From Trypanosoma brucei (Eukaryota), in contig CP000070.1 in the NCBI GenBank assembly GCA_000002445.1, positions 1,728,001 through 1,792,000 on the forward strand: 64,000 nt of DNA, written 5' to 3'. Position numbers: made by a program. Positions 33,801 through 36,800 of the stretch are shown piece by piece (position 1 is the first letter of the stretch; the number at the start of each line of letters is the position of its first letter).

Positions 33801-36800
33801 TGTTAGCACCATGCCGAGAGGTAACCAAGTTGCTGCGCCCCACCGAAGGCACTCTGTCTCGGGGACGCGTGTACGCGTGGGAAGTTGTGTTGGTTTTGAG
33901 TTTTTGCCGCCGTATAAACGCAGGTGGCACATTGCGAGCCGGCACGGTGATCGCAAAACTCCGTGAGATCGCGCCCTGAAGCACTTTCGTCTATGCACAG
34001 CCTGCAGCGCCATGAAGATGCGATAAAGTTGGTCTCGTGCCCCCAACTAATGATGACCCGTGGGCGCCCGGTGGAGGAAGATCCATTGAGCCGTGGCATT
34101 CACATACACGGAAAACAGAGCCCTACTTATGGGCCCGGTTGTTTTACCACGTAGTGTCTACCCGCACTCTCCTGTACAGTACGGTGTTCTCCAAAATTTT
34201 TCTGCTCTCTACCTTGCTCAATCGTGGCGTTGATTTTCTTTTTTTTTTCTTCTTTTTCTCATATGGTCTTCAGAACTGGAAGTCGTTAAAAACAATGAGC
34301 TCCACGAGGGCTGCTCTATTATGCATTGGCATCGCCATAATGTACAGTACGGGAGGTGACTGCTTCAGGCTCTATAGGATAACCAGGCAACATAAATGCA
34401 ACGAACTATCAAGCACATTCAATGAATACAGTCATGCCTTCACGAACTCATGGAGAAGTTTCCAATTCTCCCTGAATACCGCCAGATCCGCCAAAAAGAG
34501 GTGCGAAAGCGTCATGAACATAAGCCAGGACAAGGAGGTGTCGGAGAGCATTAATGAGGACAGAAAGAAGAAGGTGGATAAATATTATGATGCTATCCTA
34601 TACATTGAACCACAAATAGGAAACTACGAAAAGGAACTACATGAAACGCTTGCTGAAGTGCACGAAAAATGTAGCTTTTGGTTTTTGTATTTGCCAATGT
34701 CAACTGAGTTCCTAGAAAGCACGAACAGCAGGCTAGCGGAGGCGAAAAAGATTTTGGAAAAGATGATCGGTCTTACTCACGAGGCAAATGGGTACGCAAC
34801 AACCGCGAAGAACATGGAATGTTCCTTTGAATTGGTTGGACAGAAGGTTACGGAGAAAGAAAGGGAGTCTGATTCCAGCGACGCCAACGCAGCGCCCACC
34901 ACCCCTGACTCGACATCTCAGACCCACTCACCCAAGCAGCCAGTTCCACCCGAGGACGGTGATAAACACAAAACACACGGTGATGATAAAAAACACGACC
35001 ACAAGAAGCATGGCGACGAAGACGGTGAAGATGAGGATCATGAAGACGAAGAAGAGGGAGAAGAGGAAGAAGCCGGCGACGACGAATAATATGGGAGTGA
35101 AAGGAAGAATAACATCGGCGGCCGTGCGGAAAATGACAAAAGATCGCGAAAATTCCGAAAAGGAACAATATTGAAGCAGAAGCAGATTAAACTATGATAC
35201 AGGTTGAATGTAAGAAGAAGTCAACGGATTTTATTTGATTGGGAACACGACGATGGAAGATGATGCTTCGTCTTACTCAAGGCTACGTAGGTTGAGATGC
35301 TGCTTCGATGATAACAAGTTATTCAGCTGCGTGCTGTGGTTTTCCTTTATTGCTTTATAACATTAATATGCTTTACTTTTTGTTCTTTTTATTGAAGATA
35401 TAAACAGATCGGCGACGTGCTCCGGGTTCGATTTTTCCATAAGGGATTTGGGTAATGAAATGATGTATAGAAACCGCTTTAAATAGCGGTGTGTGCGTGT
35501 GTGTGTGGACGGACGGATGGTTGATGTTAGCATGTTCCAACGTACCAACGTGTGACGGAGGGCATGCAACAATATGAATATCTACGTAACCGCATGCTAA
35601 GTAATGCTTTGCTTGAAGTGACTTTTTGTCCCTTTTACAGTGTTGTGAGTGCTTTTAAATACCCAACGTGATTTTGAGACTGTAGTGTGGCGTGTGTGTA
35701 TTGTTTGAGGGAAGGAGGAAACTGTCTCTCTCCTGCATATGGATGTACATGTGCTTCAATTCCTGGCTCATTCTTTCACCAACAGCGTAGGAATGCACGT
35801 GGTTGACATGATGCGAACTGCGTGGCGCTGATGCCTGAATGCACAAAGCGGTTGGACTGAGCATCGTGCCAATACGTGGAAGCGGGATTATGCCGGGTAG
35901 ACATTTCGTGTAGACGATTGGGGTTCGATTTGCGGTGACTTGTAACATCCCGTCACTGACGTTATTCCTGACACGGAGAGTAAGGGAATTGCAGTGGCTG
36001 GGGAAGCACAGAAAAACATCTGCAACAGAGTTGTATAAGCCTAAAGCACCGCACGTTTCCACTTGCTCAAGAAGGGGACGAATTATATGAGCTGCGGGAG
36101 TGTTGCGGGGATTTGCCCGCGGTGATATGTACCTTTTCCACCCTTTCATTTCCAGCGTGGCAACCTCTTGATTCAGTGGCGCAGCAACCCCGGTGGTGGG
36201 GGAGTTTGAATTCAACCGCGCAAACTTTGGCGACGAGGCGTGACAATATGCCCTCAGGCTTGGGGAAGGGATCCCGACACGATCAGCATGCCCTTTGTGA
36301 ATTGAAGCCCATCGTCACTCCACTAGCGGGCAAGGCGCAGCACCGGTCGGTGATTCACGTCTGGACATCATCCTCACGCTTTCACCCACCGCTGTCGTTT
36401 CGTGCCCTGCTTTAACGCTAGCCCGTGCATGCAGATGCATCTTTTGGACGACGGTTATGTGTCGTGGTCCCTTCCAGAGCTACTGCGTCGTAGCGATGCC
36501 GCGGCCATACCATCGAAGCCTCTCCAGCCTTCATCGTAATCGCCCTGCTCTATAAGCCCATTCGCCGCAAAATGTAGTACCAGAAACGTGTCTGCGCCTC
36601 GTTCCTTCCCTGGCCAAATATCCGCAGCTGGGTTGCTCATTCGAGTTTCCCATGCGACCCTCTTCGTTTCCCCTCTTAATCACCATTGTTGAGGCATTAA
36701 TGGCGCAACTTGTGCTTCCCGTTCCTTAGCGTTCCCACCATAGGGGCTAACGTGTAGGGTAAATTTTTTGCTTTCAACGCGTTTTTCTTGGTTTAACCCC

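Follow-up and report, generated by a model that had tools for sequence, protein, structure and literature searches.

A VSG island inside Trypanosoma brucei chromosome 7 that probably lies between converging Fam10/SGM1 polycistrons

The boundary at 35.1–35.4 kb of the window (the 64,000-nt stretch of DNA analysed, a segment of T. brucei TREU927 chromosome 7) is very probably the left edge of a silent VSG island that lies within the chromosome between converging Fam10/SGM1 polycistrons. On this reading a short Pol II polycistron ends with SGM1.1, and positions 35090–35420 are the 3′ flank of that gene. This flank runs into the left arm of an inverted repeat, whose two arms enclose a silent island of 26.8 kb. 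The island would occupy the point of polycistron convergence inside the Fam10/SGM1 cluster, with SGM1.1 on its left and SGM1.2–1.4 and SGM1.7 on its right. From the literature, the silence of the VSGs, which are co-oriented with the left polycistron, may be due to Pol II halting at SGM1.1 or shortly past it, and H3.V and base J, placed here through published gene IDs, would be found both within the cluster and upstream of it. The locus is already known: it belongs to the annotated reference genome, and H3.V/base J silencing has been published for it. There is little new in it as a core/array junction. A VSG island that splits the Fam10/SGM1 cluster, framed by a repeat that appears to be built from the family's own 3′ flanks, bears on a family that is being explored for transmission-blocking vaccine antigens, and a stable island would be a clean natural case for how Pol II halts ahead of silent VSGs.

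The left polycistron and its last gene

The Pol II unit that ends at the boundary begins at a divergent strand switch at ~19–20 kb. Its six genes fit the IDs 6440–6490, and the unit probably runs from Tb927.7.6440 (v-SNARE) to Tb927.7.6490 (SGM1.1). The preliminary description had placed the end of the last plus-strand CDS at 35089 and had named Kae1, Dus and FG-GAP genes in the unit; ORF calling bears out the former and Pfam the latter. The gene it called SNARE does encode a SNARE-like protein, but its Pfam matches are all below threshold. It had also taken every gene up to 35089 for single-copy housekeeping, which does not hold for the last of them, a paralog of the Fam10/SGM1 surface proteins. 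No tRNA genes were found at the 35-kb boundary, and base composition shifts at ~39 kb, where the 70-bp repeats start, not at 35.1–35.4 kb.

SGM1.1, the final plus-strand CDS ahead of the island, encodes 264 amino acids with a hydrophobic, signal-peptide-like N-terminus and an acidic tail, and the protein is 100% identical to TREU927 XP_846272.1. Tested against named members, it belongs by homology to the Fam10/SGM1 family, as do the genes to the right of the island. It shares 31% identity with the 203-residue protein encoded there (BLASTP, E 2e-23), and tblastn gives E-values of 1e-20 to 1e-32 against SGM1.2–1.4, 1.5e-32 against the ortholog of ESP17 (Tb927.7.6570) and 1.2e-27 against that of SGM1.3 (Tb927.7.6560). 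The published SGM1.3 qPCR primers map to a 227-aa gene right of the island, and the SGM1.7 ortholog (SGM1.7 is Tb927.7.6600), recovered by a family profile search, includes the peptides that published primers encode. Among 1.84 billion proteins the Fam10 profile found 10 representatives only. SGM1.1 has been equated with Tb927.7.6490 (PMC8509897); taking our gene as this first member of the chromosome 7 cluster fits the order of the genes, the spacing of their IDs and what has been published, by an indirect link from ID to sequence.

The family has been described in the cell-surface phylome of Jackson 2013, through ESP17 by Gadelha 2015 and as SGM1.1–1.7 by Vigneron 2020. Its members are published as having a predicted GPI anchor and metacyclic-stage expression, and most Fam10 genes are 12- to 23-fold up in metacyclic cells (Vigneron 2020 Dataset S1). 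The chromosomal layout is drawn in Fig. S5A of the latter work. The portions of the Fam10/SGM1 literature searched mention neither a VSG island splitting the cluster nor a common 316-nt 3′-flank module.

Table 1 Features of the window around the VSG island
Feature	Position	Strand	Basis or remark
Six-gene Pol II unit	20269–35089	+	ORF calling, Pfam; gene names and IDs via Vigneron 2020 Dataset S1
SNARE-like protein	20269–20937	+	Pfam matches sub-threshold only
Dus	23135–24721	+	Pfam
FG-GAP/DEX1	25202–27739	+	Pfam
Kae1/TsaD	28813–30108	+	Pfam
SGM1.1 (probably Tb927.7.6490), Fam10 family	34295–35089	+	TREU927 protein match, paralogy
SGM1.1 proximal 3′ flank (probable 3′ UTR)	35090–35425	+	Paralogous to flanks of other Fam10 genes
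Left arm of 705-nt inverted repeat	35426–36130	+	Repeat search, 98% complementary
Conserved 316-nt Fam10 3′-flank module (outer left arm)	35426–35741	+	Copies after Fam10 genes
Left filler, unique, GC-rich	36131–37538	.	Unmatched in window; ORFs without Pfam match
5′ ingi fragment, 1.2 kb, 3′-truncated	37539–38744	-	98% identical to 59727–60851 of full ingi
70-bp repeats before VSG1	39133–39300	+	Repeat families D1–D3, TRF
VSG1 (probably Tb927.7.6500)	40704–42308	+	Trypan_glycop_C E 7e-13
70-bp repeats before VSG2	42552–42654		Repeat search
VSG2, B-type pseudogene in two frames	43495–45050	+	VSG_B E 2e-20 and Trypan_glycop_C E 4e-25 in separate ORFs
(TAA)52 and 70-bp repeats before VSG3	45201–45422		TRF, repeat search
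VSG3, A-type	46894–48300	+	Pfam
70-bp repeats before VSG4	48587–48738		Repeat search
VSG4, B-type	50226–51638	+	VSG_B E 5e-56
70-bp repeats before VSG5	52156–52382		
VSG5, intact A-type "atypical" VSG (probably Tb927.7.6540)	53242–54885	+	Pfam E 1e-101
Sixth, orphan 70-bp repeat stretch, no VSG after	55052–55276	+	TRF, repeat search
ingi, near full-length	55800–60951	-	RVT_1 E 7e-26; RNase H E 6e-8; C2H2 fingers
Right filler, unique	60952–62904	.	No similarity in window except (TA)n
Right arm of 705-nt inverted repeat	62905–63609	-	316-nt Fam10 module outermost, 63294–63609
SGM1.2 3′ flank	63610–64000	-	Alignment to orthologous locus L003

Contents of the island and its published counterpart

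The ingi elements, 70-bp repeats and VSGs that the preliminary description had reported beyond 35.4 kb are all found by Pfam, TRF and repeat search. Besides unique filler, the 26.8-kb island contains a 5′ fragment of ingi and a full ingi, five VSG cassettes and one orphan 70-bp repeat (Table 1). Pfam VSG domains in the five VSGs, together with a total of six stretches of 70-bp repeats, make it a VSG cluster. The likely start codon of VSG1 is the ATG at 40836. VSG5 is exactly TREU927 XP_846274.1, and this match and that of SGM1.1 identify the window as TREU927 DNA. Relatives of VSG5 from Lister 427, EATRO1125, gambiense and equiperdum fall into one 90% cluster with it, and those from Lister 427 and EATRO1125 share at least 90% identity. 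The 5′ ingi fragment, which has a weak endonuclease match, begins with CCCTGGCG..., which we take to be the canonical ingi/RIME start. After the orphan repeat the next recognisable feature is the other ingi, which gambiense and equiperdum carry in the corresponding position. It has the endonuclease, reverse transcriptase and RNase H/zinc-finger parts of an ingi of ~5.2 kb, with the coding sequence split into several ORFs; its 3′ end is approximate and ~100 nt at its 5′ end are non-canonical. Pfam gave no credible match for the ORFs of either filler, and the two fillers have no similarity to each other or to the rest of the window, except for (TA)n in the right one.

Gene IDs and annotation suggest that the island is the same locus as cSSR 7.7 of Lister 427, a VSG cluster under H3.V/base J (Reynolds et al. 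2016, PLoS Genet, PMC4721609, Fig 5). Like the island, cSSR 7.7 is a convergent strand-switch region on this chromosome in a similar coordinate range, it likewise contains VSG pseudogenes and one atypical VSG, and its IDs Tb427.07.6500–6530 correspond to the five places that VSGs fill between Tb927.7.6490 and 6550. H3.V and base J are present upstream of and within the cSSR 7.7 cluster, and loss of both derepresses its VSGs 3- to 5-fold (PMC4721609). According to the tables of the same paper, Tb427.07.6500–6530 are up 1.6- to 5.1-fold in the H3.V knockout (3.1- to 5.1-fold for 6510–6530) and rise further when the knockout is treated with DMOG. Unlike the present description, the account of cSSR 7.7 is without the 705-nt inverted repeat, the flanking Fam10 paralogs and the common 3′-flank module.

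The inverted repeat and the Fam10 3′-flank module

An inverted repeat does exist close to position 35415, where it had been proposed; it actually starts at 35426, and its partner lies at the far end of the island. The arms are 26774 nt apart. Shuffled sequence gives 0 expected matches to a 50-nt piece of an arm, which puts the repeat far above chance, and the arms occur in gambiense and equiperdum too. The label "subtelomere-type", given to the repeat in the preliminary description, does not fit, as the outer 316 nt of each arm are a 3′-flank module of the Fam10 cluster. The inner 389 nt are found only in the two arms, and tblastn detected no Fam10 pseudogene within the arms or the fillers.

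Copies of the 316-nt module lie ~250–415 nt past the stop codons of SGM1.1–1.5 and SGM1.7 with 92–98% identity, and every Fam10 gene examined has one 3′ of it, including genes far from the island and SGM1.5, the repeat-bearing gene upstream. The Fam10 proteins themselves are only 26–42% identical, in contrast to their modules. Apparently the presence of the module after these six genes, conserved beyond the proteins, is a detail that has not been described previously. Paralogy also extends outside the module: positions 35185–35756 share 94% identity with the gambiense flank after SGM1.7 and positions 35303–35756 share 97% with the SGM1.4–SGM1.3 spacer. At the orthologous positions gambiense and equiperdum share 99.1–99.4% identity with the SGM1.1 flank at 35090–35425. 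Most of the module would lie within mature 3′ UTRs. Rfam gave no match over the whole window at the gathering threshold, nor over 35000–37600 at E<=1.

Arm orthologs are 96.5–97.9% identical between strains, compared to 98.8–99.4% for the adjacent unique DNA, and arm variants are shared as a mosaic, some of them being common to both arms within one strain. The variants common to one strain's arms and the faster divergence of the orthologs argue for concerted evolution of the arms. We infer that each arm may be the 3′ tail of a terminal Fam10 gene, with gene conversion homogenising the two and keeping them alike. It is possible, although we put it forward tentatively, that the module is a cis-regulatory 3′-UTR element that gives the SGM1/Fam10 genes their common metacyclic expression, that selection together with gene conversion holds it at its high identity, and that its two terminal copies with the additional 389 nt form a matched pair of boundary or termination elements that insulate the VSG island against the polycistrons converging on it. 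Stage control is mostly post-transcriptional in this organism, and a module that did drive metacyclic-specific expression would offer a compact cis-element amenable to testing.

Chromosomal position and alternative readings

The preliminary description had read the boundary as a core-to-VSG-array junction with subtelomere-type content on one side, of the kind at which synteny between strains breaks and arrays grow or shrink. Pol II genes do meet a VSG array here, but the array is ~27 kb long and chromosome-internal, and we consider a transition from core to subtelomere, with synteny lost and the array changing in size, highly improbable. VSGs, 70-bp repeats and ingi are indeed the usual content of subtelomeric arrays on the megabase chromosomes, where VSG genes and pseudogenes also share one orientation, and divergence in the island is two to three times faster than in the core. 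Arrays at subtelomeres are far larger, extend in the direction of the telomere and differ from strain to strain. The present array, by comparison, has five cassettes and Pol II genes on both sides, and it stops at the second arm, at 63609, with Fam10 and other genes following. In gambiense (loci L006 and L009) SGM1.4–1.2 and SGM1.7 lie right of the island on the minus strand, pointing inwards, and further right come more genes on the strand of SGM1.7, one of them for an N6-adenine methylase, with ~365 kb of the chromosome left beyond the region examined. Non-VSG Pol II genes thus converge on the cluster from both sides, the right side being read in gambiense. Housekeeping gene IDs continue up to Tb927.7.7430 (Vigneron 2020 Dataset S1). 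The Fam10 and other genes on the right, together with these IDs, therefore place the array in a chromosome-internal convergent strand-switch region.

Synteny is kept past 35.1 kb in the relatives. Alignments of T. b. gambiense DAL972 and of T. b. equiperdum to TREU927 stay colinear across the junction, over the entire island and up to the window end, with per-segment identities of 95.6–99.75% and ~99–100% of positions aligned. The five VSGs and the two ingi copies recur in both, with the island in the same orientation, and the genomes compared show neither an expanded nor a contracted array. DAL972 was assembled with TREU927 as a guide, and its colinearity is for that reason not fully independent evidence. 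An assembly artefact that joined core to VSG and ingi DNA is nevertheless extremely improbable. Repeat-rich DNA is prone to misjoins, and assembly gaps do occur in the vicinity, within the (GPKESA)n repeats to the right of the window, but the join, the order of the island and both arms are alike in three assemblies that have no runs of N across 24–64 kb, and that of equiperdum is a separate assembly. Moreover, the right edge mirrors the left one in its paralogous gene, module and arm, which a random misjoin would not give.

The two remaining alternatives concern the inverted repeat. Its arms lie exactly at both ends of the island, their inner parts are confined to them, and the pattern of variants suggests recombination or conversion between them, all of which would suit a discrete cassette with terminal inverted repeats of its own, inserted as a unit or able to flip. 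We regard such a cassette as unlikely, since the outer part of the arms is the ordinary 3′-flank module of every Fam10 gene examined, homology between the SGM1.1 and SGM1.7 flanks begins at 35185, outside the arm, the orientation is constant in three genomes, and no target-site duplication or transposase was seen. Quite unlikely, too, is an element acting at the RNA level, in which read-through from both sides would produce dsRNA and siRNAs that help to silence the island, as in Tschudi et al. 2012 (BMC Genomics, PMC3447711). The arms are placed suitably, just downstream of converging genes, and the repeats of that study share with this one a core location and long, nearly identical arms in inverted orientation. 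However, its seven large inverted repeats are ~3.6–11 kb in total with arms 99–100% identical, compared to the 26.8-kb spacer and 98% here, and the present repeat is not among IR1–IR7 in Table 3. The entries for chromosome 7 are at 1125–1135 kb and 1889–1896 kb (arms of 3636 and 2520 bp), and the convergent units on that chromosome (53–62, 460–470, 833–839 and 1617–1628 kb) are elsewhere. We considered IR4 and these units as the island locus and rejected them for want of any correspondence. An intramolecular hairpin is unlikely because the arms are so far apart, and the module alone folds unremarkably (z-score -0.75).

Two gene calls on the right were revised. In gambiense, apparent genes of 1080 and 918 aa right of SGM1.4 are wrong-strand readings of the 18-nt coding repeat that encodes (GPKESA)n. 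A 34-aa minus-strand tail near 63898 was considered as the end of the neighbouring gene and rejected: window position 63998 aligns with position 20640 of L003, where the SGM1.2 ortholog occupies 20669–21280 on the minus strand, so that the stop codon of SGM1.2 (203 aa, probably Tb927.7.6550) lies ~27 nt past the end of the window.

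Chromosomal position and conservation of the VSG island

The VSG island is flanked on its left by a plus-strand unit of only six genes. Two encoded proteins place the window on chromosome 7 of T. brucei brucei TREU927, whose record spans 2,205,233 bp. TREU927 XP_846272.1 is identical to the product (264 aa) of the last plus-strand gene (34295-35089), which has orthologs in T. b. gambiense DAL972 at 1.81 Mb of a 2.22-Mb sequence and in T. b. equiperdum at 1.88 Mb of 2.10 Mb. The VSG at 53242-54885 exactly matches XP_846274.1, annotated "VSG, atypical". ORFs lie on the minus strand over 1-19 kb and on the plus strand over 20-35 kb, and a divergent strand switch is therefore placed at ~19-20 kb. 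Pfam confirms Dus, FG-GAP/DEX1 and Kae1/TsaD in the plus-strand unit; matches of the SNARE-like protein are sub-threshold only, and neither of the last two genes contains a Pfam domain. The minus-strand genes, which end at the strand-switch region, include ORFs of 1456 and 968 aa. One of the few alignment breaks against equiperdum and gambiense falls at a (TG)45 microsatellite, located after Kae1 and before the 760-aa gene; the microsatellite therefore varies in length among subspecies.

To the right of the island in gambiense, the surface-protein genes SGM1.2, 1.3 and 1.4 are all directed into it. Farther right come an 18-nt (GPKESA)n coding repeat, assigned to the wrong strand by gene callers, and SGM1.7, on the same strand as SGM1.2-1.4; beyond SGM1.7 this strand carries three further genes, one of them an N6-adenine methylase. 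Housekeeping gene IDs run on to at least Tb927.7.7430 (SCC1, E2 enzyme, MTAP, ATP synthase alpha). The island therefore lies at the convergence of two polycistrons, well within the chromosome.

Colinearity with gambiense and equiperdum extends across the junction (24.2-45.1 kb) and likewise over 43.1-64.0 kb, with ~99-100% of positions aligned and no N runs. Identity is 99.2-99.75% in the core and SGM1.1, 99.1-99.4% at 35090-35425, 96.5-97.9% in the arms of the inverted repeat and 95.6-99.1% in the island; the rate of evolution there is two to three times that of the core, though content and order are stable. The two ingi copies and the orphan 70-bp stretch occur in all three genomes. At 90% identity or more, VSG5, the last cassette, clusters with proteins of Lister 427 (VSG 312) and EATRO1125. 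The preliminary description was right that the core meets a VSG array here, but the array is small, internal and evolutionarily stable, and marks no core/subtelomere breakpoint. Neither the loss of synteny at ~35.1 kb nor the subtelomeric location that it considered is found, and a misassembly join is very unlikely because three assemblies agree.

In gambiense the (GPKESA)n repeats are very large and open in all frames, were miscalled as 1080-aa and 918-aa genes, and probably make up the repetitive tails of SGM1.5 and SGM1.6. In one gambiense segment, flanked on both sides by 100-N gaps, a Fam10 gene and module run opposite to their neighbours, either a true inversion or a misoriented contig. 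In equiperdum, the 9 kb upstream of ESP17 (Tb927.7.6570) and a 100-N gap hold neither a Fam10 gene nor a GPKE repeat; that assembly apparently lacks, or has collapsed, the section of the cluster with SGM1.5-1.7.

Contents of the island

Base composition changes at ~39 kb, not 35.1 kb. Five plus-strand VSG cassettes each have 70-bp or TAA repeats upstream, and a sixth repeat stretch has no VSG; ingi sequence begins ~500 nt past it. This arrangement suggests a lost or disrupted sixth cassette, and no VSG remnant was detected among the ORFs of the right unique filler. The short ingi fragment retains a 5' start (CCCTGGCG...), which we take to be the canonical ingi 5' end. The 5' ~100 nt of the near full-length copy is unrelated to it and the coding region is split into several ORFs, so this ingi is probably not autonomous. 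The 3' ends of VSG2 and VSG3, together with the sequence downstream, are covered by a 300-nt direct repeat (98% identical), which may be a VSG 3' end common to both or stem from recent conversion of adjacent cassettes. Upstream of VSG3, an uninterrupted (TAA)52 run occupies the 70-bp repeat position; alignments to the other subspecies also break there.

Coordinates of features in the window and in loci of the other subspecies
Feature	Sequence	Coordinates	Strand	Remark
Minus-strand genes	window	1-19250	minus	
(TG)45 microsatellite	window	30788-30877		
705-nt inverted repeat, left arm	window	35426-36130		98% complementary to right arm
705-nt inverted repeat, right arm	window	62905-63609		98% complementary to left arm
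Unique filler, left	window	36131-37538		
ingi 5' fragment, 1.2 kb	window	37539-38744	minus	5' end compared: 38664-38744
300-nt direct repeat	window	44887-45186; 48277-48576		
(TAA)52 run	window	45237-45392		
Sixth repeat stretch without VSG	window	55052-55276		region to ingi: 55052-55800
Near full-length ingi	window	~55.8-60.95 kb	minus	5' end compared: 60852-60951
Unique filler, right	window	60952-62904		
316-nt module copies	window	35426-35741; 63294-63609		
316-nt module copies	L006 (gambiense)	6793-7114; 8095-8544; 9596-9904		
316-nt module copies	L009 (gambiense)	11060-11369; 16109-16433		
(GPKESA)n	L006; L009 (gambiense)	200-6510; 12319-20807		
Region upstream of ESP17	L008 (equiperdum)	1-9215		

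SGM1.1 and the Fam10 3'-flank module

By sequence, the last gene before the island is a member of a surface-protein family; gene order, the numbering of IDs and published names point to SGM1.1, and 35090-35420 is the 3' flank of this gene. The gene is paralogous (31% identity over 127 aa, E 2e-23) to the 203-aa minus-strand gene right of the island, whose stop lies ~27 nt past the window end, as seen in the DNA surrounding the VSG5 orthologs of gambiense and equiperdum. ESP17 is a Fam10 member of the cell-surface phylome (PMC4587319), and Vigneron et al. 2020 (PMC7007551) renamed the family SGM1.1-1.7, following chromosomal order. Of their primers, those for SGM1.3 (Tb927.7.6560) map to the 227-aa gene adjoining the 203-aa gene, and in their Dataset S1 Tb927.7.6440 is v-SNARE, 6490 is hypothetical and 6570 is ESP17; Tb927.7.6490 is SGM1.1 in Hutchinson et al. 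2021 (PMC8509897). The gene IDs fit in number: 6440-6490 match the six plus-strand genes, 6500-6540 the five VSGs and 6550-6570 the 203-, 227- and 235-aa genes. With a Fam10 profile, a search of 1.84 billion proteins yields just ten cluster representatives. Four more Fam10-like proteins (P0016, P0017, P0019 and P0020; 173-203 aa) have near-identical signal peptides (MGPGSRFALLFLALM...) that differ from the TREU927 copies; Fam10 may extend past the seven T. brucei genes.

We aligned the DNA 3' of SGM1.1 and SGM1.2 with the SGM1.4-1.3-1.2 tandem spacers, and compared the SGM1.7 locus by BLAST. In each arm, the outer 316 nt form a module found ~250-415 nt past the stop of each Fam10 gene examined. 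Copies of this non-coding module are 92-98% identical, compared to 26-42% among Fam10 proteins. SGM1.1 and SGM1.7 flank homology starts at 35185, outside the arm. All features listed in the preliminary description are present, but two of its labels fail: the "housekeeping core" up to 35089 ends in a Fam10 gene with a paralog across the island, and the "subtelomere-type" inverted repeat is in its outer part Fam10 3' flank.

In the tandem SGM1 genes, the module ends ~97 nt ahead of the next ATG, immediately before a polypyrimidine tract. Since polyadenylation is usually coupled to downstream trans-splicing, the upstream gene's 3' UTR should contain most of the module. The module matches no Rfam family, folds no better than shuffled sequence and has no mention that we found in the searchable literature. 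The inner 389 nt occurs only in the two arms and contains no Fam10 remnant. Among six arms from three genomes, there are variants that a single strain carries in both of its arms (alignment columns 244 and 251 in equiperdum are examples), and arm orthologs are more diverged than adjoining unique DNA; this pattern suggests gene conversion among copies. The module is a candidate shared 3'-UTR regulatory element of this metacyclic-stage family, or else a product of flank-restricted gene conversion. The siRNA sources of Tschudi et al. 2012 (PMC3447711) comprise seven large inverted repeats and four chromosome 7 convergent units, and the 705-nt repeat locus is absent from both lists.

Transcription termination and VSG silencing

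The locus itself has been described before. What is new is modest: a 705-nt repeat brackets the island and derives from the highly conserved Fam10 3'-flank module, and the SGM1 cluster is split by a VSG island; none of the searchable papers mentions these points. The VSGs have the orientation of the left polycistron, so their silence requires Pol II to stop after SGM1.1. Matched by gene ID, the island would correspond to the VSG cluster of Reynolds et al. 2016 (PMC4721609), whose position is a known site of H3.V/J termination. There, loss of H3.V, and further loss of J, raises the cluster mRNAs. Tb427.07.6500, 6510, 6520 and 6530, each <10 kb from both marks, are up 1.6-5.1-fold in the H3.V knockout, and 6510-6530 alone are up 3.1-5.1-fold (PMC4721609).
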